A stretch of DNA of 64,000 bases from Alphaproteobacteria bacterium (lineage in GTDB: Bacteria > Pseudomonadota > Alphaproteobacteria > UBA828): the NCBI GenBank assembly GCA_965221125.1, contig CBDCRW010000005.1, positions 192,001-256,000 on the forward strand, written 5' to 3'. The position numbers and the translations under genes were made by a program. Shown here piece after piece: positions 1 through 63,370 of the stretch. A model generated the notes under the pieces. The model searched no databases and was not told the DNA's origin. It was given only the letters and a program-made list of their open reading frames with translations. Numbering within the stretch: the first letter of the stretch is position 1; each line of letters begins with the position of its first letter.

Positions 1-653
1 TCCAGCCGACCGGGCTCGCGCCCTACTTCGTGAACTCGATCAAGATGGTCGTGCCGGCGGTGGTGATCTCCACGCTGCTCGGCGCGCTCAACGGCTACGT
101 GCTCACCAAGTGGCGCTTCCGCGGCGATACCCTCGTCTTCGCGCTGATGCTGTTCGCCTGCTTCATCCCCTTCCAGATCGTGCTGATCCCCATGGCCCGG
201 GTGCTGGGCTTCCTCGGCATCGCCGGCACCACCTGGGGCCTGGTGCTGGTGCACGTGGTCTATGGGCTGGGCTTCACCACGCTCTTCTTCCGCAACTACT
301 ACGCGGCGTTCCCGACCGAGCTGGTGAAGGCGGCGCAGATCGACGGGGCTAACTTCCTGCGAATCTTCTACCGCATCCTGCTGCCGAGCTCCGGCCCGAT
401 CATCGTGGTCACGGTGATCTGGCAGTTTACCAACGTGTGGAACGACTTCCTGTTCGGCGCCTCGTTCGCGGACTTCGATTCGCAGCCGATGACGGTGGCG
501 CTCAACAATCTGGTCAGCTCGTCGACCGGGGTGAAGGAGTACAACGTGCACTTTGCCGGCGCGGTCCTGGCGGCGATCCCGACGCTGGTGGTCTACGTCG
601 TCGCCGGCCGCTACTTCGTGCGCGGCCTCATGGCCGGCGCCGTGAAGGGATAG
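1..653 (+). CDS. Carbohydrate ABC transporter permease (MalG-like), 5'-truncated by window edge
   Basis: Hydrophobic helices, EAA-like loop (ELVKAAQIDGA), WNDFL motif; open frame extends to the window start. Confidence 0.9.
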   Translation, partial: QPTGLAPYFVNSIKMVVPAVVISTLLGALNGYVLTKWRFRGDTLVFALMLFACFIPFQIVLIPMARVLGFLGIAGTTWGLVLVHVVYGLGFTTLFFRNYYAAFPTELVKAAQIDGANFLRIFYRILLPSSGPIIVVTVIWQFTNVWNDFLFGASFADFDSQPMTVALNNLVSSSTGVKEYNVHFAGAVLAAIPTLVVYVVAGRYFVRGLMAGAVKG

Positions 654-657
654 GCGC

Positions 658-1770
658 ATGTCGTTTCTGGTGGTCAGCGGTCTCGAAAAACGCTTCGGCG
701 CGGTCGAGGTGCTCAAGGGCATCGACATCAGCGTGCCGCAAGGCGGATTCCTCGTGCTGGTGGGGCCGTCGGGCTGCGGCAAGTCGACGCTGCTCAACAC
801 CATCGCCGGGCTGGAGACGGTCTCCGCCGGCGAGATCCTGATCGACGGCGCCCGCGTCAACGAGCTGCATCCGTCGAAGCGCGACATCGCCATGGTGTTC
901 CAGTCCTACGCGCTGTACCCGAACATGAACGTCGCCAAGAACATGTCGTTCGGCATGGAGATGCGGGGCGTGCCCAGGGCCGAGCGCAGGCAGGTGGTGG
1001 CCCGCGTGGCCAGCATGCTGCAGATCGAGGACTTGCTGGAGCGGAAGCCCGGCCAGCTTTCCGGCGGCCAGCGCCAGCGCGTCGCCATGGGCCGCGCGCT
1101 GGTGCGCGACCCGAAGATATTCCTGTTCGACGAGCCGCTCTCCAACCTCGACGCCAAGCTCCGCGTCGAGATGCGGACGGAGATTCAGAAGCTGCACCAG
1201 CGCCTCGGCACCACCATCGTCTACGTCACCCACGACCAGATCGAGGCGATGACGCTGGCCACCGTGATCGCGGTGCTGAAGGACGGCGTGCTGCAGCAGG
1301 TGGGCAGCCCGGCCGAGATCTACAACACGCCCGCCAATATCTTCGTCGCCGACTTCATGGGCTCGCCGTCGATGAACCTGGTGCCGGCGCGGCTTGACCG
1401 GGCGGACGGCGCGCTGGTGGTCGGCCTGCAGCGCGCCGACGGCTCGACCACGGTGCTGCCGCTGCACCGGCCCTCCGACGCGGCGCGCGCCTTTGTCGGC
1501 CGCGACGTGATCCTCGGGCTCCGGCCCGAGAGCATCGACGATGCCCCTTCTGCCGACGCCGAGGGCGCGCAACGCCATCCCCTCGAAGCCCACGTGGAGG
1601 TCACGCAGCCGACCGGCGCCGACACGCTGGCGATGATCCGCCTCGGCGGCAGGGAGGCCGTGGCGCGGCTCAGGGCCGAGACCGGCGCCCGCGCCGGGGA
1701 GCGCCGCCGGTTCATGGTCGACATGTCCAAGGCGGTGCTGTTCGACCCCGAGACCGAGGAGAGACTCTGA
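658..1770 (+). CDS. Sugar ABC transporter ATP-binding protein (MalK/UgpC family)
   Basis: GPSGCGKST, LSGGQRQR, DEPLSNLD, C-terminal TOBE-like region. Confidence 0.95.
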   Translation: MSFLVVSGLEKRFGAVEVLKGIDISVPQGGFLVLVGPSGCGKSTLLNTIAGLETVSAGEILIDGARVNELHPSKRDIAMVFQSYALYPNMNVAKNMSFGMEMRGVPRAERRQVVARVASMLQIEDLLERKPGQLSGGQRQRVAMGRALVRDPKIFLFDEPLSNLDAKLRVEMRTEIQKLHQRLGTTIVYVTHDQIEAMTLATVIAVLKDGVLQQVGSPAEIYNTPANIFVADFMGSPSMNLVPARLDRADGALVVGLQRADGSTTVLPLHRPSDAARAFVGRDVILGLRPESIDDAPSADAEGAQRHPLEAHVEVTQPTGADTLAMIRLGGREAVARLRAETGARAGERRRFMVDMSKAVLFDPETEERL

Positions 1771-1774
1771 GCCG

Positions 1775-3277
1775 GTGAGCGGCGCATTCGACGTCGTCAT
1801 CATCGGCTCCGGCGTGGGCGGCGGCTGCGTGGCCCATACGCTGGCACCCACCGGCGCCCGCATCGCGATCCTCGAGCGGGGCGCGCGGCTGCCGCGCGAG
1901 GAGCGCAACTGGGACCCCGAGGCGGTCTACGCCGATGCCGTCTACAAGTCGGACGAGCGCTGGGTCGACGGCACGGGCCGCGCCTTCCGGCCGGGGCAGT
2001 TCTACTACGTGGGCGGCCATACCAAGGTGTTCGGCGCCACCATGTTCCGCTTCCGCCGCGAGGATTTTTCGGCCATGGAGCACGCGGGCGGGCTCTCGCC
2101 GGCCTGGCCCATCGACTACGAGACGCTCGAGCCCTGGTACGCCCGCGCCGAGCGCCTCTTCGGCGTCCACGGCGAGGCCGGCGCCGACCCGACCGAGCCG
2201 CCGCGCTCCGGCCCCTACCCCTATCCGCCGCTGCGCCACAATCCGGTGATCGCCGAGGTCGCCGAGCGGTTGCGCGCGCAAGGGCTGCGCCCCTTCCCCA
2301 TGCCGACGTCGGTGCAGGACCACGACGGCGGCGCCTGCGTGCGCTGCAACACCTGCGACGGCTTCCCCTGCCGGCTCGGCGCCAAGGGCGACGCCGAGAC
2401 CCGGCTGATCGACCCGGTGCTGCACCACGGGAACGTTTCGCTGCGAACGGAGGCGCAGGTCGCCCGCCTGCTGGCCGATCCGAGCGGCCGGCGCGTGGTG
2501 GCCGCCCAGCTTGCCGACGGCACGGAGGTCCGGGGCGATCTCTTCGTGCTGGCGGCGGGCGCGGTCAACAGCGCCGCGATCCTGCTACGCTCGGTCCATG
2601 CGAAGCATCCGAATGGTCTCGCCAACGCCTCCGGCATGGTCGGGCGGCACTACATGAACCACAACTGCACGGCGGTGATGGCGATAAGGCCCTTGCATAC
2701 CAACCGGGAGCCGTTCCAGAAGACGCTGGCGCTCAACGACTTCTACCTGGGGGACGGCGCGGGCGGGCCGCCGCTCGGCAACGTGCAACTGCTGGGCAAG
2801 ATCATGGAGCCGATGCTGCGGAGCGAAATCCGCGCCGTGCCGCGCTGGGCGCGCGCCTGGCTCGCCGCCCACAGCGTCGACTGGTACGCCATGTCGGAGG
2901 ACCTGCCGCACCCGGAGAGCCGGGTGACGGTGCGGGGCGACGGGTCCATCGTCCTCGACTGGCGCCGGACGAATGTGGCCGCGCACGGGATGCTCGTCGC
3001 CAGGGTGCGAAGGCTGCTGCGGGCGGCGGGCTTCCCCATCGTGCTGACCAGGGCGTTCTCGAAGGACACGCCGTCGCACCAGTGCGGCACCGTGCGCTTC
3101 GGCCACGACCCGGCGGCGGCGGCGCTCGACCCCTTCTGCAAGGCCTTCGACCTCGACAACCTCTATGTCGTCGACGCCTCGTTCTTCCCCTCGTCCGCCG
3201 CCGTCAATCCCGCGCTTACCGTGGCCGCCCAGGCGCTCCGCGCGGGCGAGCACATCGCGTCGACGCGGCTGCACTGA
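1775..3277 (+). CDS. GMC family FAD oxidoreductase
   Basis: GSGVGG dinucleotide motif, CxxCxxCDGFPC, SHQCGT, VDASFFP...NPALT. Confidence 0.9.
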   Translation: MSGAFDVVIIGSGVGGGCVAHTLAPTGARIAILERGARLPREERNWDPEAVYADAVYKSDERWVDGTGRAFRPGQFYYVGGHTKVFGATMFRFRREDFSAMEHAGGLSPAWPIDYETLEPWYARAERLFGVHGEAGADPTEPPRSGPYPYPPLRHNPVIAEVAERLRAQGLRPFPMPTSVQDHDGGACVRCNTCDGFPCRLGAKGDAETRLIDPVLHHGNVSLRTEAQVARLLADPSGRRVVAAQLADGTEVRGDLFVLAAGAVNSAAILLRSVHAKHPNGLANASGMVGRHYMNHNCTAVMAIRPLHTNREPFQKTLALNDFYLGDGAGGPPLGNVQLLGKIMEPMLRSEIRAVPRWARAWLAAHSVDWYAMSEDLPHPESRVTVRGDGSIVLDWRRTNVAAHGMLVARVRRLLRAAGFPIVLTRAFSKDTPSHQCGTVRFGHDPAAAALDPFCKAFDLDNLYVVDASFFPSSAAVNPALTVAAQALRAGEHIASTRLH

Positions 3278-3286
3278 GGGGCGCCC

Positions 3287-4084
3287 GTGGCCGACACCCC
3301 GATCTCCTCCCTCGCCAGCCGCCCGGTCGCGCTGGTGACGGGTGCGCGGCGCGGCATCGGCGCGGCCATTGCCGTCGCGCTGGCCGAGAGCGGGTTCGAC
3401 GTGGCCTGCGCGGACATCCTGCCCGCCGAAGCCGACGACCCGGTACGGGCGGGAATCGAGACGGCTGGCGGCCGCGCGCTCGGCGTCACAAGCGACCTCG
3501 CCGACCTCGACGCGCATGGCCCCCTGGTCGAGACGGTGGCGGACTGGGGCGGCGGGCTGGACGTGCTGGTCAACAACGCGGGCGTGGTGTGGCCCGAGCG
3601 CGGCGACATGCTGGCGGCGACGCCGGAGGCCTTCGACCGGGTCATGGGCGTCAACCTCAGGGGGACCTTCTTCCTCAGCCAGCGCGTGGCCGCGTGGATG
3701 GTGGCGCACCCGCGGGGCGACGGCTTCCGCCGCAGCATCGTCAGCATCGGCTCGGTCAGCGCCGAGATGGCGACGCCGGAGCGCAGCGAGTACTGCATCT
3801 CCAAGGCGGGGCTCGCCATGCTCACCAGGCTGCTCGCGCTGCGCCTGGCCGATGAGGGCGTTTCGGTCTACGAGGTGCGGCCCGGTATCATCCGCACCGA
3901 CATGACCGCGAGCGTGACGGACAAGTACGACCGCGCCATCGCCGCCGGGCTGAGCCCGATCCGCCGCTGGGGCGAGCCGGCGGACGTCGCGCGCGCGACG
4001 TCTGCCCTGGTGCGCGGCGACTTCGCCTTCGCCACCGGCAGCGTCGTCCACGTGGACGGCGGCCTGTCGGTTCAGCGGCTCTAG
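3287..4084 (+). CDS. Short-chain dehydrogenase/reductase
   Basis: TGARRGIG, NNAG, YCISK catalytic motif. Confidence 0.92.
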   Translation: MADTPISSLASRPVALVTGARRGIGAAIAVALAESGFDVACADILPAEADDPVRAGIETAGGRALGVTSDLADLDAHGPLVETVADWGGGLDVLVNNAGVVWPERGDMLAATPEAFDRVMGVNLRGTFFLSQRVAAWMVAHPRGDGFRRSIVSIGSVSAEMATPERSEYCISKAGLAMLTRLLALRLADEGVSVYEVRPGIIRTDMTASVTDKYDRAIAAGLSPIRRWGEPADVARATSALVRGDFAFATGSVVHVDGGLSVQRL

Positions 4085-4086
4085 CC

Positions 4087-5673
4087 GTGCGCGAATACGA
4101 CTACGTCATCGTCGGCGCCGGCCCGGCTGGCTGCTGCCTCGCGGCGCGGCTCTCCGAAGACCCGGATGTCTCCGTGCTGCTGCTGGAGGCCGGCGGCGGC
4201 GACCGGCACCCCTATATCCATGCGCCGGCCGGCTTCGCCAAGCTCACCGGCACGTCGCACACCTGGGGCTATTCCACGGCGCCCCAGCGCGAGATCGACG
4301 GGCGCGAGATGTGGTACCCGCAGGGGCGCGTGCTGGGCGGCGGCAGCTCGATCAACGCCATGATCTACGCCCGCGGCAACCCCAGGGACTACGACGGCTG
4401 GGCCGCAGCAGGCTGCCCCGGCTGGGCCTATGCCGACGTGCTGCCCTACTTCAGGCGGCCCGAGGACAACGAGCGCTTTCACGACGACTACCACGGCTCC
4501 GGCGGCCCGCTCGGCGTGAGCGACCCCGTCCGCCCCCTGCCGATATCGGCCGCGTTCCTGCGCGCGGCGCAACAGGCCGGGCTGCCCTACAATGCGGACT
4601 TCAACGGCACGGCGCAGGAAGGCTGCGGCTACTACCAGGTGACCAACCGCAAGGCCCGGCGCTGCAGCGCGGTCGAGGCGTACCTGCGGCCCGCGATGGC
4701 GCGGTCGAACCTCACCGTGAGGACCCGTGCGTTGGCGACCCGCGTCGTCCTCGAGAGCGGCCGCGCGGTGGGCGTCGACTGCGGCCGGCGCGGGAGACCT
4801 GAGCGCATACGGGCCGCGCGCGAGGTGATCGTGAGCGCCGGCGCCATCGGCTCGCCCAAGCTGCTGATGCTGTCCGGCATCGGCCGGGGCGACGACCTGC
4901 GCGCGCTCGGCATCGACGTGGTGCACGACCTGCCGGGCGTCGGGCGGAACCTGCAGGACCACTTCGACGTCTACGTGGTGAGCGAGTGCCGCGGCGACTT
5001 CAGCTACGACAAGGTCTTGCGGCCCCACCGCACCCTCTGGGCCGTGCTGCAGTACCTGCTGTTCCGCCAGGGGCCGATCGCGTCCACCCTGATCGACGCC
5101 GGCGGGTTCTGGTACGCCGATGCGGACGCGCCGGCGCCCGACATCCAGATGCACTTCGTGCTGGGCTCGGGCCTCGAGTACGGCCTCGCCAAGCTGAAAG
5201 GGGCCGGCGTCACGCTCAACTCGTGCTTCTCCCGGCCCAAGGCGCGCGGCACGGTGACGCTGCGGGACGCCGACCCGCGCGAGCCGCCCGCCATCGACCC
5301 CAACTACTGGGGCGACCCTTACGACCACGAGATGTCGCTCAGGGGCTTCAAGCTCGCCCGCGAGATCATGGCGCAGGAGGCGTTCCGCCCCTTCATCCTG
5401 TGCGAGCGCCATCCCGGCCCCGACGTGCGGAGCGACGCCGATATCGCCGCCTATGCCCGCAGGGCGGGCAAGACGGATTTCCACCCGGTGGGCACCTGCA
5501 AGATGGGAAGCGACGACATGGCGGTGGTGGACCCTGCCTTGAAGGTGCGGGGCCTCGACGGTCTGCGGGTCATCGATTCGTCCGTGATGCCGCTGCTCAC
5601 CACGGGCAACACCAACGCGCCGACCATCATGGTGGCGGAAAAGGGCGCCGACCACGTGCGCGGCCTGATCTGA
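4087..5673 (+). CDS. GMC oxidoreductase (choline/alcohol/sorbose dehydrogenase-like)
   Basis: GAGPAG, GRVLGGGSSINAM, GRNLQDH, FHPVGTCKMG, GNTNAP. Confidence 0.92.
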   Translation: MREYDYVIVGAGPAGCCLAARLSEDPDVSVLLLEAGGGDRHPYIHAPAGFAKLTGTSHTWGYSTAPQREIDGREMWYPQGRVLGGGSSINAMIYARGNPRDYDGWAAAGCPGWAYADVLPYFRRPEDNERFHDDYHGSGGPLGVSDPVRPLPISAAFLRAAQQAGLPYNADFNGTAQEGCGYYQVTNRKARRCSAVEAYLRPAMARSNLTVRTRALATRVVLESGRAVGVDCGRRGRPERIRAAREVIVSAGAIGSPKLLMLSGIGRGDDLRALGIDVVHDLPGVGRNLQDHFDVYVVSECRGDFSYDKVLRPHRTLWAVLQYLLFRQGPIASTLIDAGGFWYADADAPAPDIQMHFVLGSGLEYGLAKLKGAGVTLNSCFSRPKARGTVTLRDADPREPPAIDPNYWGDPYDHEMSLRGFKLAREIMAQEAFRPFILCERHPGPDVRSDADIAAYARRAGKTDFHPVGTCKMGSDDMAVVDPALKVRGLDGLRVIDSSVMPLLTTGNTNAPTIMVAEKGADHVRGLI

Positions 5674-56205: not shown

Positions 56206-56250
56206 GGCCGGCGGCACGCGCGGCCGGGTGGCGGCCCTGGGCGGGCCGGC

Positions 56251-56343
56251 TTGGGCCACCATGAGCCGCCTTGGGTCACTTTGGGCCACTTTGGGCCGCT
56301 CGTTTGGACCATCTTGGGCCACTTTGGACCACTTTGGGCCGGA
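56251..56343 (+). repeat. Degenerate 10-bp tandem repeat (TTGGGCCACT)n, about 9 units
   Basis: Units at 56251, 56261, 56271, 56281, 56291, 56304, 56314, 56324, 56334. Confidence 0.85.
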
Positions 56344-57691: not shown

Positions 57692-58416
57692 CTAGCGGGT
57701 GAAGCGCGATTCGGTGTCCGCGGTGCCGAACCTGCGGCTGTCCTCGTCGCTCCAGCGCGCGCCGCTCGCCTGGGTCGCGAACTTCTCGACCATGTACGCG
57801 CCGGCCGTGATCGGCGGATATTTCGCCGGCCGCTCCGCGCTCTGGCAGGTCGGCAGGCACTCGATCACCGCGTCGTGACGGGGCTCGACGAAATAGCAGA
57901 GCGACAGGCGCGGCCCGGCGGCGCGCGGCGGATTGACCACGCGATGCCGCGTGGAACGCCAGCGGTCGTTGGTCCACCGCATCATCTGGTCGCCGATATT
58001 GACCACGAACGATCCGGCGACGGCCTGCACGTCCACCCAGGCGCCGTCGGGGCTCCGCGCCTGCAGGCCCCCCGGCTTGTCCTCGATCAGGCAGATCGTG
58101 AGGTTGTCGTAGTCCGAGTGCTCGCCGGCGCGGAGCTGCCCCTCGTCCGGCGCCGTCCGCTGCTCCGGATAATTCAGCACACGCAGAATGCTGAATCCGT
58201 TCTCGAGCCGCGCGTCGAAATGATCCTCCGGCAGGTCGAACGCCAGCGCCGCGATCCTGTGCAGGTGCCGGCCCAGCCGGTCCAGCGCCCGGATGTAGGC
58301 CTCGATCGCCGGCCGGAACGCCGCCGGACGCCGCGGCCACAGGTTGGGCGCGTAGTGGGGCGCCGCCGCCGCCGTGCGGAAGGAGGGATCGTCCGGCACG
58401 TCGAGCGGCCCGATGG
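57692..58416 (-). pseudogene. IPNS-family 2OG-Fe(II) oxygenase, C-terminal part (interrupted by transposon)
   Basis: HSD, STRHRV, RLSLCYF; joins in frame with 63038-63370. Confidence 0.9.
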
Positions 58417-58562
58417 TGTTGTTTTCCGGTCTAGCCGGATAGAAGCACGGGTTTTTTTCTCACTTTGATTGGTTGGTGGATTTCCCGGGATGGTGGCCGA
58501 GTGCGGGAAGGACGCTGCCTGCGGCATTTTTTTGATCCTCAGCAGAATCCTCATTGCTGTTG

Positions 58563-58696
58563 AAGCTGTGGAGCGGTGGGCGCGAGATCGGCGAGTGTGG
58601 TCAGGCGGTGGGCAAGCGCCAGCTTGTCCACGGGCTGTCCACACGGTCCGCAGGACGCCGATCGGTCCGCAGGACGCGTCCACGGCTCCACAGCTT
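58563..58696 (+). ncRNA. Putative structured RNA/leader in the transposon left end
   Basis: AAGCTGTGGAGC/GCTCCACAGCTT closing stem; inner hairpin GTGGGCAAGC-GCCA-GCTTGTCCAC; G.U pairs on + strand. Confidence 0.45.
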
Positions 58697-58785
58697 GGCG
58701 GCGGCGGGGAGCGTCCGTAATCTTGGCCTCTCACTGAACGACAAAGAGAGGCCCGGGGGACGGAACTCCCGCCGGGCCAGGGCCG

Positions 58786-59421
58786 GTGCAGCTTCGCTAC
58801 GAAACGGGGCTCACCAGCGAGGAATACGTTAAGACCGAGGCGTGGCGCGACGCAAGGCTTGAGCGCTGCCCGAATCACCCGCACGGCGGATGTTCTGTGG
58901 CAAGCCACGGCACCTACGAGCGGAAGACCCCGCCCGGCGCAAGGGTTCCTCGCTGGTATTGCCGTGAGAGCCATACGACCATCGGCCTGCTGGCCGACTG
59001 TCTGGCGGCGCGGCTGCCGGGCACGCTCGATGCGCTGGAAGCGGTTGTTGTCGTGGCGGAGGAGGCCGGCAGCCTGGAGGAGGCAGCGGACGAGGTGCGC
59101 TGCCCCGAGGACGAGGACGCCATCGAGCTTCCCGGCGCCGTGCGTTGGATCCGCCGCAGGCTGAAGCTTGTGCACGACGCGCTTGTGCGCGTCATCGGCC
59201 TGATCCCCGACCTGCTCGCGGGCTGCGCGCCCACCATGAGCGCGGTGCGCGAGCGTCTGAAGAGCGACAGCGCGTTGATGGAACTGCGCGGCCTGGTCGC
59301 CGGGCAGCTCCGGACGCTACCCGCGCCTCTGGGCTTCCAACCCCACGGCATCGACGTGGGGAATCGCAAACCGCAGTTCCAACAACGGGCGGGGCCGGAC
59401 CCGCCGCCGGAGAGTTCGTAG
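58786..59421 (+). CDS. Transposon accessory protein, Cys/His-rich (DUF6431-like Zn ribbon + helical domain)
   Basis: CPNH....C...HGTY.R......RWYC...H.T..LL.DCLA. Confidence 0.7.
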   Translation: MQLRYETGLTSEEYVKTEAWRDARLERCPNHPHGGCSVASHGTYERKTPPGARVPRWYCRESHTTIGLLADCLAARLPGTLDALEAVVVVAEEAGSLEEAADEVRCPEDEDAIELPGAVRWIRRRLKLVHDALVRVIGLIPDLLAGCAPTMSAVRERLKSDSALMELRGLVAGQLRTLPAPLGFQPHGIDVGNRKPQFQQRAGPDPPPESS

Positions 59422-59466
59422 CGTGACGATCCCGGGGCCAGGGAGTCCCTGAACGAGGATCGCACC

Positions 59467-60795
59467 ATGAACAGCTCAGACGACGACCTTCGCCAACAGA
59501 TCGCGCTCTTCCGATACGACGTCATCGCCGATCTGGTGCATCTGCCCGTGGGTGCACCGGGTGCCGGCGCGATGATGCGCGCCAAAGCCGAGAAGACCTA
59601 CACGATCCCCGGAACCACCAGGACCCGGGTCGCCGCCGAGACCATGCGGCGCTGGATCAAGGACTACCGCTACGGCGGCTTCGACGCGCTCTACCCCAAG
59701 CCCCGCACCGACCGGGGGAAGCCCCGGCGGCTGCCGCCCGAGGTCGCCGAGCGCCTCATCGCGCTGAAGACCGAGAACGACGCATTGTCGGTTCGCGCCA
59801 TCATCCAGAAGGTCAAGGAGGAGGGTATCGACCACCCGCTCGCCTCGTCCACCGTGCACCGCCTCTTCAGCCGCGAGGGCCTGTTCGACAAGAAGCCGCC
59901 CGACGGGGCGGATCGCCGCCGCTTCGCCTTCCGGCATGCCGGCGAGATGTGGATGAGCGACGTCATGCACGGACCCAAGGTCCGGCACGGCCGAACCCGG
60001 CGCAAGACCTACCTGATCGCCTTCATCGACGACGCCACCCGCGTCATCCCGTTCGCCGCCTTCGCCATGGCGGAGAACACTGCGGCGTTCCTGCCGGTGT
60101 TCAAGGACGCGCTGATCCGGCGCGGCCTCCCGGCCCGCTTGTACGTCGACAACGGAAGCGCCTACCGCTCCCGTCATCTCTCCCTGGTCTGCGCCAGGCT
60201 CGGCGTTGCGTTGATTCACGCAAGGGCGTTCCAGCCAGCGGGAAAGGGTAAGATCGAGCGCTTCTTCCGCACCCTCCGGGCCGGCTGGCTCCGCCACCTC
60301 GGCGATGACGTCGACAGCCTGGAGGCGCTCAACCGCAGCCTCTGGGCCTGGATCGAGGGGGAGTATCACAACAGCCCGCATCGTGGCCTCGACGAGGGGC
60401 GCACCCCGCTTGAGCAGTGGGCGCTGGCCTCGGCCGGCGTGCGCTATCCCGACGCCACCATGGACCTCGACGATCTGTTCCTCTTCGAGGCCAGGCGCCG
60501 TGTCTACAAGGACCGCACCGTTAGTCTGAACGGCCGCGTCTACGAGGTCGACGCCCTCCTGGTGGGTCAGAACGTCATCCTGCGCTACGACCCGGCCGCG
60601 CCGCCCTCGCGCCCTCTCGACGTGGTCCATGACGGCAAGCCGGCCGGCAAGGCCAGCCCTCTCGACGCCTACGCCAATACCGCCGTCAGGCGCACCTACC
60701 CGGCCAGGGAGATCGAGGCCGAAGATCCGGCGCCCGAGCCTCCGCCCTCGCCGCTGGCCATGCGCAACCTCAAGGACAAGAAGGAGGACGAGTGA
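59467..60795 (+). CDS. DDE transposase/integrase (rve + Mu-transposase C-terminal domain)
   Basis: N-terminal HTH; WMSD, YVDNGSAY, KGKIERFF (D-D-E); RRVYKDRTVSLNG. Confidence 0.93.
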   Translation: MNSSDDDLRQQIALFRYDVIADLVHLPVGAPGAGAMMRAKAEKTYTIPGTTRTRVAAETMRRWIKDYRYGGFDALYPKPRTDRGKPRRLPPEVAERLIALKTENDALSVRAIIQKVKEEGIDHPLASSTVHRLFSREGLFDKKPPDGADRRRFAFRHAGEMWMSDVMHGPKVRHGRTRRKTYLIAFIDDATRVIPFAAFAMAENTAAFLPVFKDALIRRGLPARLYVDNGSAYRSRHLSLVCARLGVALIHARAFQPAGKGKIERFFRTLRAGWLRHLGDDVDSLEALNRSLWAWIEGEYHNSPHRGLDEGRTPLEQWALASAGVRYPDATMDLDDLFLFEARRRVYKDRTVSLNGRVYEVDALLVGQNVILRYDPAAPPSRPLDVVHDGKPAGKASPLDAYANTAVRRTYPAREIEAEDPAPEPPPSPLAMRNLKDKKEDE

Positions 60796-61595
60796 TGTAC
60801 CTGCGCCACTTCGCCTTCACCCGCCTGCCCTTCGAGACCCCGGCAGAGACCGACGAGCTGTTCGAGTCCAACGCGCGCCGCGAGGCCGAGGCCAGGCTCG
60901 GCCACCTCATCGACCTGCGCGGCATCGGCCTGCTCACCGGCGAGGTGGGCTCCGGCAAGACCACCGTGTGCCGGCATCTGACCGCGCAGCTTCATCCAGG
61001 CCTCTACCGGGTCCACTACGTCTCGCTGACCACGGGCAACGTGCTCGACATGTACAAGGCGATCGCGTGGGAGATCGGCCTGCCCATCGAGCGCTCCCGC
61101 GCCTCGGCCTATCAGGCCATCCGAAACGAGATCTCCCGCCTCGTCACCGAGGCCAAGCAGCTGCCGGTCCTCGTCATCGACGAGGCCCATCATCTGCGCA
61201 ACGACGTCCTTGAGGACCTGCGCCTGCTCACCAACTTCGCCATGGATGCAGAGCAGCGCCTGTGCCTCGTCCTCGTCGGTCTGACCGAGCTCAGGCGCCG
61301 CCTGGCCATGGCCATGCACGAATCCCTCAGCCAGCGCCTCGTCGTCCGCCACCACCTGAGCGGTCTCGACCGCGACGAGGTCGACGCTTACATCAAGCAC
61401 CGCCTCAGGCTCGCGGGATGCGAACTGCCGCTGTTCGAAGAGCCCGCCGTCGAGGCCCTGTTCCAGGGCGCGCGCGGCCTGCCGCGCCAGATCAACCGCA
61501 TCGCCCACTACGCGCTCTCCGCCGCCGCTCTCGACGAGGCGAGGACCGTCAGTGCCGACCACCTGCAGCACGCGCTCGAGGAACTGCGGCCATGA
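60795..61595 (+). CDS. ExeA-like AAA+ ATPase (transposition helper, TnsC/MuB/IstB analog)
   Basis: GEVGSGKT, IDEAH, LVG, SLSQR, G.PRQIN; TGATG coupling to the transposase. Confidence 0.9.
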   Translation: MYLRHFAFTRLPFETPAETDELFESNARREAEARLGHLIDLRGIGLLTGEVGSGKTTVCRHLTAQLHPGLYRVHYVSLTTGNVLDMYKAIAWEIGLPIERSRASAYQAIRNEISRLVTEAKQLPVLVIDEAHHLRNDVLEDLRLLTNFAMDAEQRLCLVLVGLTELRRRLAMAMHESLSQRLVVRHHLSGLDRDEVDAYIKHRLRLAGCELPLFEEPAVEALFQGARGLPRQINRIAHYALSAAALDEARTVSADHLQHALEELRP

Positions 61596-62632
61596 CCGGC
61601 TTCCCGACCCGCGCCCCGATCGAGCTGGAGGAGCGGCCGCGCGAGCAGCAATGGCTGGTGGACACGCTATGGGGCGAGCAGGCCGTCGGCATCGTCGGCG
61701 GCGAGCCGAAGTGCGGCAAGTCCATCCTGGCGCTGGACCTCGCGGTCGCAGTCGCCGCCGGCGTCCCATGCCTGCGGCACTTCGCCCCGGCCCGGCCTGG
61801 CCCGGTCCTGCTGTTCGCCGCAGAAGACGCCGGCCACCTCGTGCGCAAGCGCCTGCAGGGGATCGCCCGCGCCGCAGGCGCCCGCTTCGAGACCCTCGAC
61901 ATCGCCGTCATCGACGTGCCCACACTGCGCCTCGACCATCTCGACGACCGCCGCCGCCTGCAGCAGACCGTGGAGCGCATCGCACCGCGCCTCGTGGTCC
62001 TCGACCCCCTGGTCCGCCTGCACGGCGTGGACGAGAACACGGTTGCGGACGTCGCCCCGATCCTCGGCTTCCTGCGCGACCTGCAACGCCGCTTCGAGAC
62101 CGCCGTCCTCCTCGTCCACCACGCCCGCAAGAGCGGGGCCACGAGGCCGGGGCAGGCCCTGCGGGGCAGCAGTGAGCTGCACGCCTGGGGGGACTCGAAC
62201 CTCTACCTGCGCCGCCGGGACCGGCAGACCCTCATGACCGTCGAGCATCGCGCCGCACGCGGTCTCGACGACATCGAGATCGAGCTCAAGGAAGACGGAG
62301 AGGAGCCCTCCTTCCGGCTGCGCCAGCCGCCCACGGCCGGCGGCGGGGCGCCTCAGCCCGAAACACCCGAATGCCGCGTTCTCAAGGCGCTCGCCGACGC
62401 CGGGGCGCCGCTCTCGCAACGCCAGATCCGGGAACGCGCCGCGACCCGGCACAAGACCGTCGGCGTAATCTTGCAAAAGCTCGTCCAGGAGGGTCGCGTC
62501 GCGCGCAACGCCGAGGGCGGCTACAGCGTCGTCGCAGGCGCAGCGGACAAGCGGGCGGCGGCCGCCGCCGCCAACGGCAGCAGTCGGCCGCAGGCCCCGC
62601 GGTTCCCGGAGCCCGGTTCCGCCAACGCCTAG
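61592..62632 (+). CDS. AAA_25 / RepA-type SF4 helicase-like ATPase with C-terminal winged helix
   Basis: GEPKCGKS, AAED, VLDP, DEN, VHHARK, RGSS; ATGA coupling to the upstream ATPase. Confidence 0.85.
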   Translation: MTGFPTRAPIELEERPREQQWLVDTLWGEQAVGIVGGEPKCGKSILALDLAVAVAAGVPCLRHFAPARPGPVLLFAAEDAGHLVRKRLQGIARAAGARFETLDIAVIDVPTLRLDHLDDRRRLQQTVERIAPRLVVLDPLVRLHGVDENTVADVAPILGFLRDLQRRFETAVLLVHHARKSGATRPGQALRGSSELHAWGDSNLYLRRRDRQTLMTVEHRAARGLDDIEIELKEDGEEPSFRLRQPPTAGGGAPQPETPECRVLKALADAGAPLSQRQIRERAATRHKTVGVILQKLVQEGRVARNAEGGYSVVAGAADKRAAAAAANGSSRPQAPRFPEPGSANA

Positions 62633-63037
62633 GGGTTCGAGCCGGAACCGCCGTCGGGAACCACCCTTCCCCAACGGTCCGGAAGGCGCTGCGCCTCCAC
62701 CGGGATACTACGTCAGGTGAGCGGCCAGTCCGTGGCCGGAAGCTTGCTTCAGGCCATGGCAGCACTTCGTCGTGTGGACGGTGGCGAGTCACCCGAAGGG
62801 CCGAAGCGAAGCGCAGGAGCGGCGCAGCCGCTTGACGCGCCGACGGCCGCGCGACACCTCGTCAGCTCTCCTCAAGCACCAGTCCAAACCTCAATCAGAC
62901 AGCGACCCCGGACCGCCCGCAGAGACCATGAGCTCCTACGCTTCGATCCGGAAAAGACCGAGCAATCTGGGAAATCAGGGCAGCGATCACGTCAAATAAT
63001 CTGGGAGATTCGGCGTCAAATAACGTGCGAAACAACA

Positions 63038-63370
63038 GATGGAGACGGACTCCTTCAGGTCCGGCGGCGTCGTGAGGCCGATGGTGGCAGAAAGCTGCTC
63101 GGTGCCGAGCGGCTCGTAGCCCCGGTTGGCCTCGTCGCCCGGGTCCTGCCTGATGGCGAGCTTCTCAGCCAGCGGCAGGTCGAAGAAGGCGCGGGAGGCG
63201 TCGCGCGCCCGCGCGCACAGCGCCGGGTCGACCCCGTGGCCCGTGATCAGGAAGAAGCCGATGCGCTCGCAGGCTTCGCTGACCGCGTGCGCCACGCGCT
63301 GCCGGTCGGCGCGGCCCCCGGCGAAATAGGGGCCGAGGTCGATGAGGGGGATCTGGGGTTCGCTCGACAT
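63038..63370 (-). pseudogene. IPNS-family 2OG-Fe(II) oxygenase, N-terminal part
   Basis: IPLIDL, AC..IGFF.ITGHGV, FFDLP..EK, RGY, DLKES. Confidence 0.9.

Follow-up and report, generated by a model that had tools for sequence, protein, structure and literature searches.

Why should a transposon with a Mu-type transposase carry, behind its AAA+ gene, a gene for a protein that resembles replicative helicases, and is that gene part of the transposition machinery? The question is raised by a 4,621-bp element at positions 58417-63037 of a 64,000-nucleotide stretch of DNA, referred to here as the window, from an Alphaproteobacteria bacterium (GenBank assembly GCA_965221125.1, contig CBDCRW010000005.1, positions 192,001 to 256,000). 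The element has four open reading frames (ORFs) in one orientation, which encode a zinc-ribbon protein (ORF1, 58786-59421), a DDE transposase (59467-60795), an AAA+ ATPase (60795-61595) and an AAA_25 protein (61592-62632). An earlier reading made from the sequence only had described an intact Mu/Tn7/Tn5053-type transposon and had proposed the helicase-like protein as a core component; the results given below bear out the transposon and argue against the core role, pointing instead to a helicase gene grafted onto a complete three-gene element.

The limits of the element are well defined. At the left junction ...CCGATGG runs into TGTTGTTTTCCGG..., and at the right junction ...GCGAAACAACA runs into GATGGAGACGG; the TGT...ACA termini form a perfect 8-bp inverted repeat (TGTTGTTT at 58417-58424 and AAACAACA at 63030-63037), and the 5-bp sequence GATGG flanks both ends (58412-58416 and, read from the sequence, 63038-63042). 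Three genomes of the same genus represent the empty site: GATGG is present there once, and the sequences on either side of the window copy are joined directly, with an exact 5-bp overlap. The 4.58-Mb genome of the host holds 20 copies of the element with exactly the same boundaries, amounting to about 2% of the genome, and 17 of them are 100% identical across all 4,621 bp, while the other three are identical except for an inserted 1,452-bp insertion sequence (IS) of the IS256 family near one end. A perfect 5-bp duplication surrounds 15 of the 20 copies, and three have flanks with four shared bp, offset by one position. The remaining two, at C4:671960-676580 (minus strand) and C4:716887-721507 (plus strand), lie 45 kb apart and have exchanged flanks (CGGGG/CCCTC), from which it follows that the 45-kb segment between these two inverted copies has been inverted; this inversion may have come about by recombination between the copies or by intramolecular replicative transposition. 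When the flanks of the 20 copies were compared, no common sequence was found at the insertion sites. The element is thus autonomous and recently bursting, as its 20 copies show, and inserts at unspecific sites with 5-bp duplications; the termini, the duplication and the intact state proposed earlier are all borne out by the same-boundary copies, the empty sites and the Mu-type domains of the proteins.

The fourth gene (plus strand) encodes a 346-aa protein in which Pfam and an AlphaFold2 (AF2) model place a RecA-fold ATPase of the RepA/DnaB type followed by a C-terminal winged helix. The Pfam AAA_25 match scores 127 bits; the C-terminus matches a MarR_2-like winged helix-turn-helix at 24.8 bits, which is under the cut-off of 27, and adopts a winged-helix fold in the model, whose predicted local distance difference test score (pLDDT) is 85.8. 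The best sequence match in the PDB is RepA of RSF1010 (1g8y, E 9.6e-10), and a Foldseek search with the model returned DnaB (2q6t, 7.9e-11) and RepA 1g8y, the latter with a fold TM score (TMt) of 0.74, so that the likeness to RSF1010 RepA noted earlier is well founded. The Walker A lysine, K43 in the window protein, the Walker B aspartate and the HH..K motif are invariant in 42 AAA_25 relatives, and the protein matches PHROG primase-helicase families; PADLOC returned no defence-system match. By sequence and fold it has the features of a superfamily 4 (SF4, DnaB/RepA-type) RecA-fold protein, and helicase activity is predicted. The gene is under purifying selection, with a ratio of nonsynonymous to synonymous substitution rates (dN/dS) of 0.16-0.41, as low as or lower than that of the transposase (0.29-0.37) and of ORF1 (0.31-0.44). 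The subfamily is rare, being present in 4 of 401 genomes of a sample of the class, the host genome included. Two unusual forms of the gene were seen in relatives. A 597-aa metagenome protein (P0004), 92% identical to the window helicase, has AAA_22 and AAA_25 in one frame, as a result either of a natural fusion or of a frameshift where the two genes overlap (ATGA), and a deletion derivative (L062, 1034-1648) joins residues 1-21 of the AAA+ protein to the helicase from residue 125 onward, so that both genes are broken.

To place the fourth gene in the history of the element, we surveyed the relatives of its transposase (family A), taking one genome per species; of 445 relatives the best 80 gave 79 loci, with transposase identities from 98% down to 37%, in Pseudomonadota, Acidobacteriota, Spirochaetota, Verrucomicrobiota, Desulfobacterota, Bacillota and others. 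ORF1, transposase and AAA_22 genes occur together at all loci down to 46% transposase identity, and DUF6431-type ORFs also lie upstream in more distant loci and on annotated plasmids. The conserved machinery of family A is therefore made up of three genes, for a DUF6431-like zinc-ribbon protein, a Mu/TnsB-type DD(35)E transposase and an ExeA/MuB-like AAA+ protein. Elements whose limits could be set by within-genome copies are 3.3-3.6 kb or 4.1-4.4 kb long, with TGTTG-type ends and 5-bp duplications. The place behind the AAA+ gene is variable: among the 59 evaluable loci (of 79), 38 have no fourth gene, 14 have a gene for a DUF3991+Toprim_2 protein and 7 have AAA_25, and counted by genome record (40 evaluable of 58) the figures are 26, 9 and 5. 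The Toprim proteins are assigned to DUF3991+Toprim_2 by Pfam, and their DnaG-like PADLOC match is weak. In the transposase tree the AAA_25 bearers are confined to one terminal clade of 10 rows, 6 with the gene and 4 without, while the Toprim bearers form a basal grade of the ORF1-type clade; this tree and the AAA_25 tree described below are quick trees with a midpoint root. An element of the same genus that is 79% identical to the window element (L125) has no AAA_25 gene. These distributions indicate that AAA_25 is not ancestral to family A, and because 38 of the 59 loci have no fourth gene and 7 have AAA_25, the helicase is not a core component there. The sequence-only reading had itself named as its refutation that close transposase homologues mostly lack AAA_25, and this is what family A shows, with 52 of 59 loci devoid of it.

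Where did the gene come from? Same-genus genomes contain many additional AAA_25 copies away from any family A transposase, and these belong to a second type of element, family B, with TGAGCG...CGCTCA ends and a different zinc-ribbon/helix-turn-helix (HTH) ORF in first place. Its transposase is 26-27% and its AAA_22 protein 28-30% identical to those of the window element, whereas its AAA_25 protein is 69-80% identical to that of the window, again with an ATGA overlap. A blastn comparison resolved the window element into three parts. Its positions 1-3179 align with family A elements of the three-gene type (78-89%). The stretch from 3171 to 4457, which reaches about 240 bp past the helicase stop, aligns with family B (76-80%), and the terminal 95 bases (4527-4621) align with the right end of family A (74%). 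The family B-derived module, consisting of the AAA_25 gene and about 240 bp of 3' non-coding DNA, spans 61587-62873 on the plus strand. In the AAA_25 tree, a starred clade encloses the 11 family A rows together with the family B rows of the genus, and the deeper branches are all family B. As judged from these alignments, the window element is a mosaic in which a family B AAA_25 module appears grafted into a family A backbone, and from the mosaic and the tree together we infer a transfer from family B to family A, which probably happened once or twice.

Within the genus, all seven family B variants carry AAA_25 and three of them an added Toprim gene; the DUF3991-Toprim gene follows the helicase in L114, L211/L212 and L213. 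Outside the genus, AAA_25 is present in three of six evaluable family B lineages (G906, G835 and G799). An apparent in-frame TGA in the helicase copies of G793 proved to be the natural stop. Representative same-genus elements (L112, 4818-9242; L113, 4780-9200; L114, 4223-9414) are 4.4-5.2 kb long and reach copy numbers of 12 to 36 or more per genome. In a Spirochaetia genome, a family B element (L031, 9212-13195) and an oppositely oriented family A element with three genes are separated by about 600 bp, a kind of neighbourhood in which exchange of the module could occur. A search of viral contigs for family B gave one pattern match and no relative.

The gene neighbourhood of the AAA_25 subfamily was examined in metagenomes by a scan anchored on the helicase alignment, which returned 579 relatives, of which the best 80 (48-76% identity) were inspected; seven of these loci have too little upstream sequence to judge. 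In all 73 evaluable loci among these best 80, a transposition AAA+ gene lies directly upstream of AAA_25, a family B AAA_22 gene in 69 and an IS21-type IstB gene in four; where the transposase could be evaluated, a family B transposase precedes AAA_22 in 50 of 52 loci. Two of the IS21-type loci, L196 and L200, have full IstA (272.8 bits, cut-off 160) and IstB (272.8 bits, cut-off 200) genes ahead of AAA_25, and in the other two, L145 and L153, the upstream IstB is 40% identical to that of L196/L200. AAA_25 also follows an AAA_22 gene in a further lineage (G283), whose transposase is 35% identical to that of family A and 27% to that of family B. As to the layout of the IS21-type elements, AAA_25 is the third gene in L196 (93-4250), L200, L145 and L153, and in L196/L200 a small Cys-rich ORF lies upstream.

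Taking into account (i) the linkage to a transposition AAA+ gene in every evaluable metagenome locus, (ii) the occurrence on unrelated backbones, IS21 included, (iii) the alternation or combination with a primase gene and (iv) purifying selection, a role of AAA_25 tied to transposition is likely, most plausibly in replication, but as an accessory. Hence, of the earlier claim that the helicase serves transposition, the link to transposition is supported by the exclusive AAA+ linkage and by selection, and its core status is not. More specifically, we propose, giving it about an even chance, that AAA_25 belongs to an accessory and repeatedly recruited helicase/primase module that helps to replicate the strand-transfer intermediate. 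The transposase would nick the 3' ends only, since there is no TnsA-type second nuclease, and the AAA+ protein would capture target DNA; strand transfer would then leave a forked (Shapiro) intermediate, as in Mu. The helicase of the element, and in relatives the primase, would be recruited to this fork, perhaps through the adjacent AAA+ protein, and would start replication through the element independently of the host restart primosome, so that more copy-and-paste events would result; cointegrates would be resolved by host recombination. In this scheme the module would be an accessory that raises fitness and not an essential core part. IstB is described as akin to the DnaC/I helicase loaders in a passage of PMC11208146, and this kinship, together with the fixed place of the gene behind the AAA+ gene, suggests by analogy that the AAA+ protein may load the AAA_25 helicase.

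Several points weigh against this proposal. Three-gene relatives with neither helicase nor primase reach multiple identical copies with 5-bp duplications, and so the module must be dispensable for the mechanism as such. The signs of copy-and-paste transposition, namely the lack of a second nuclease gene, the 20 copies and the one flank-exchanged pair, each have other explanations: identical copies and exchanged flanks fit copy-and-paste, and they also fit cut-and-paste with repair from the sister chromosome, or ordinary recombination. The fold scores of KaiC, RadA and Rad51 nearly equal those of RepA and DnaB, and RecA-fold proteins of the AAA_25 type are not all helicases. Replicative transposition, helicase activity and a contact between the helicase and the transposition proteins are predictions drawn from sequences and fold models. 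The metagenome tally covers the best matches to this subfamily and is not a random sample, and in family B one lineage (G754) has an intact-looking trio with no AAA_25 within the 460 bp available, while two others (G964 and G842) are N-truncated remnants without it. The direction of transfer, finally, would be as good as the midpoint-rooted quick tree and the mosaic from which it was read.

The fourth gene may also be read in other ways. That the helicase is an essential core subunit, without which the element would be immobile, was the view of the sequence-only reading, and it accords with the ATGA overlap with the AAA+ gene, with the AAA_25 gene being intact in 20/20 copies and under purifying selection, and with its retention in all seven family B variants of the genus. 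Nevertheless, we hold it to be very improbable: the 38 of 59 family A relatives that lack a fourth gene are multicopy with fresh 5-bp duplications, L125 does without AAA_25 in the same genus at 79% identity, and the gene was apparently grafted from a family whose AAA+ partner is just 28-30% identical. A regulator or target selector that replaces TniQ, TnsD or TnsE, with the winged helix steering insertion or immunity, seems unlikely to us. No TniQ-like protein was found in the element, the model of the AAA_25 protein has a winged helix of DNA-binding type, and the gene always follows that of the AAA+ matchmaker in the evaluable metagenome loci, all of which would suit such a function; however, the 20 insertion sites have no sequence in common, the three-gene relatives make the same 5-bp duplications, and the alternative or additional gene in the same slot encodes a DnaG-like primase, so that replication fits better than targeting.

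A selfish cargo unrelated to transposition, acting in plasmid or phage interference or to the benefit of the host, would explain why AAA_25 is dispensable in family A, and transposons often accommodate cargo behind their core genes, ahead of the right end, just as phages and plasmids have AAA_25 proteins of their own. We judge this decidedly unlikely, given that PADLOC finds no match for the protein and that every evaluable member of the subfamily in the metagenome tally stands directly behind a transposition AAA+ gene, with at least four backbones represented; independent cargo should occur elsewhere too, and this exclusive linkage weighs against it. It is scarcely probable that an excised circle of the element, in a transient plasmid-like stage, is what the helicase replicates, together with the primase in relatives. 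RSF1010 RepA is a plasmid helicase, and a large inverted repeat in the left end, with direct repeats inside it, might act like an origin; but the element has no initiator (RepC-like) gene, no joint of right end to left end is among the joints listed for four sequencing runs, whose contigs drop rare forms, and excision of circles is not known for Mu/TnsB-type transposases that lack a second nuclease. An accessory replication module remains the reading that we prefer.

The other three genes make up the machinery proper. ORF1 (211 aa, plus strand) is a zinc-ribbon and helical protein by its Cys/His pattern and model (AF2, pLDDT 83); it has no Pfam or NCBIfam match, with Pfam tried up to E 10, and no PADLOC match. 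Against the DUF6431-type upstream genes of distant relatives, however, hhalign gave a probability of 96.7% (E 3.6e-10), and PF20020 occurs in 29-57% of the members of its nearest ESM Atlas clusters, so that by profile comparison ORF1 appears to be a remote DUF6431 relative, that is, a DUF6431-like zinc-ribbon protein. ORF1 was also considered as a TniQ-like selector and rejected: at E <= 0.001 a Foldseek search of the PDB found nothing, and the best TM score was about 0.2. The transposase (442 aa, plus strand) consists, by Pfam, of HTH_32 (54.2 bits), an rve core (41.9) and a Mu-transpos_C barrel (31.6), all over their cut-offs; its DD(35)E residues D165, D228 and E264 are invariant in 56/56 relatives, its nearest solved structure is a type V-K TnsB (7svw, E 5.2e-7), and it matches PHROG 310, transposases of Mu-type phages, at E 3.2e-49. 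The AAA+ protein (266 aa, plus strand), whose start overlaps the transposase stop, is of the AAA_22, ExeA/MuB-like kind, with 95.1 bits on AAA_22 and 20.8 on TniB, which is under the cut-off of 22.4; its best PDB match is MuB (8xvb, E 1e-3), and PHROG 296, 'DNA transposition protein', is matched at E 1.4e-29. The coupling of the last three genes that had been pointed out earlier is confirmed by a GTGATG stop/start between transposase and AAA+ genes (60793-60797) and an ATGA between AAA+ and AAA_25 genes (61592-61595).

The boundaries of both ends are set by the 20 copies. The left end (58417-58785, plus strand) contains a subterminal repeat ATTTCCCGGGAT at 58480-58491 and, upstream of ORF1, a 22-nt inverted repeat (58563-58584/58675-58696) around a 15-nt direct repeat; the right end (62633-63037, plus strand) contains the subterminal repeats ATTTCCCAGATT (62964-62975) and ATCTCCCAGATT (62998-63009), both on the minus strand. 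The termini of relatives are of the TGTTGTTTCCC type, as in the window element. The motif ATYTCCCRGRWT has five matches in the window where 1.92 are expected, a number reached in 4 of 100 shuffles, and all three exact matches fall within the element ends, which is suggestive but not strong evidence for a terminal motif. Transposase, AAA+ gene, end architecture and duplication length all make the machinery Mu-type.

The likeness to Mu extends to the DDE transposase with its Mu-transposase C-terminal domain and to the AAA+ partner, for which MuB is the closest relative of solved structure. It also shows in the TG...CA ends, the multiple subterminal sites, the 5-bp duplications and the Mu-type PHROG matches. 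The element differs from Mu in being 4.6 kb long, in having no structural genes and not being a phage, in its extra DUF6431-like protein, and in the helicase and/or primase gene present in it and in its relatives. Mu relies on the PriA primosome of the host, and studies of how a strand-transfer intermediate acquires its replisome have centred on Mu in E. coli and on PriA-dependent restart. With Tn552 and the Tn5053/Tn402 group (TniA-TniB-TniQ-TniR) the element shares the pair of transposase and ATP-binding-protein genes. Tn5053 makes 5-bp duplications, and the window transposase matches many staphylococcal plasmid records (408 Staphylococcus records) at low identity, presumably Tn552. Unlike that group, the element has no resolvase or TniQ match and stays under the TniB cut-off, and its insertion sites are not res sites. 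The TnsB relationship of the transposase recalls Tn7 and the CRISPR-associated Tn7-like transposons (TnsB-TnsC-TniQ), and the 5-bp duplications are shared as well. TGT/ACA termini like those of the window element are given for such transposons in a passage of PMC11406308. The difference lies in the lack of TnsA, TniQ/TnsD and Cas matches and of attachment-site targeting; searches of Pfam and NCBIfam gave no TniQ, TnsA, resolvase or Cas family match for any of the four proteins, in agreement with what the sequence-only reading had reported.

Two IS families remain to be compared. NF033577 (IS481) is the closest curated model of the window transposase, and the TGT...ACA ends are similar, but the score of 201.9 bits is under the cut-off of 224 and the family described here has three or four genes. 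IS481 elements are single-gene ISs of about 1 kb. IS21 (IstA and IstB) resembles the element in its DDE transposase and AAA+ helper in an overlapping operon, and some IS21 elements carry the same AAA_25 subfamily; the window transposase, however, scores 43.1 bits on the IS21 model against a cut-off of 160, and there is no IstB match. RSF1010 RepA is the best solved-structure match of the AAA_25 protein, with a fold match that spans most of RepA, and differs in its identity of 19-20%, in lacking the C-terminal winged helix, in not being transposon-borne and in having RepB/RepC partners. The window element therefore belongs to the Mu-type DDE and AAA+ superfamily and falls outside the Tn7-like, Tn5053, IS481 and IS21 groups.

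Parts of the system have been met before. A cassette of DUF6431, DDE and AAA-ATPase genes is reported in a passage on Clostridium sp. JS66, where it has 15 copies and mediates recombination-type deletions (bioRxiv 10.64898/2026.08.16.744336); that passage gives no fourth gene, family name, ends or mechanism. Genome annotations, too, show the three-gene cassette in piecemeal form (PMC12323340). In the literature searched, which left subscription journals largely, as well as ISfinder/TnCentral, outside, we found nothing on a RepA-like helicase or a DUF3991-Toprim gene belonging to a DDE/AAA+ transposon, nor on the helicase/primase slot, the mosaic or the IS21 association.

The present analysis thus defines a broadly distributed three-gene family (DUF6431/DDE/AAA+) that annotation pipelines label piecemeal, and indicates that natural Mu-type transposons repeatedly keep a helicase and/or primase gene right behind the AAA+ gene. 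A broader view, which we offer tentatively and as the less probable outcome, is that there is a widespread and undescribed class of DDE/AAA+ transposons with a primosome of their own, consisting of a winged-helix SF4 helicase, of a Toprim primase resembling DnaG, or of the two together. To this class would belong families A and B, both of the DUF6431 type, as well as some IS21 elements, and the AAA+ ATPase, a relative of helicase loaders, would place the primosome on the strand-transfer fork. If this were true, transposons of this class would be replicative and self-priming, a link from simple insertion sequences to self-synthesising elements like the casposons, and their primosome module would be one that transposon families exchange. 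The element offers a compact four-gene system in which to ask whether transposons supply their own fork-loading factors, and a fresh view of how transposition ATPases and helicase loaders are related, possibly leading to host-independent copy-and-paste tools.

Some further observations concern the distribution of the element and its surroundings. Such elements are carried by 6 of 12 sister genomes, with up to at least 30 copies; copy counts per genome taken from the locus listings are lower bounds. Public sequencing runs were examined as assembled contigs, in which rare forms are lost. In the best-matching run the contig depth was 387-402 for the element, against 13.9 and 33.6 for the flanking bins. 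Marine and sponge metagenome runs from several studies (X5-X16) contain about half or more of the sampled words of the element, the contigs of two of them (X5 and X9) carrying a diverged variant, and the host bacterium is marine or sponge-associated. In a metatranscriptome (X18), contigs cover only 58416-59028, 60008-60178 and 62842-63037, for which carry-over of DNA or related elements are possible sources.

In the window, the insertion splits a host gene on the minus strand (57692-63370) into a C-terminal part (57692-58416) and an N-terminal part (63038-63370); orthologues of this gene, which we take to resemble a 2OG-Fe(II) oxygenase, are intact in same-genus genomes (90% identity, open frame of 425 aa). 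The IS256-family IS that interrupts three copies of the element (C5:758404-759855, C6:194952-196403 and C7:276233-277684, all outside the window) has a transposase that scores 343.4 bits on NF033543 (cut-off 150) and is present in 14 identical copies, for example L225. Three of these 14 thus lie inside the 4.6-kb element, which makes up only about 2% of the genome, and each is no more than about 180 bp from one end. A 20-bp tandem repeat (4.4 copies, 72% matches) at 56250-56340, some 2 kb upstream of the element, falls where ORFs overlap on both strands.

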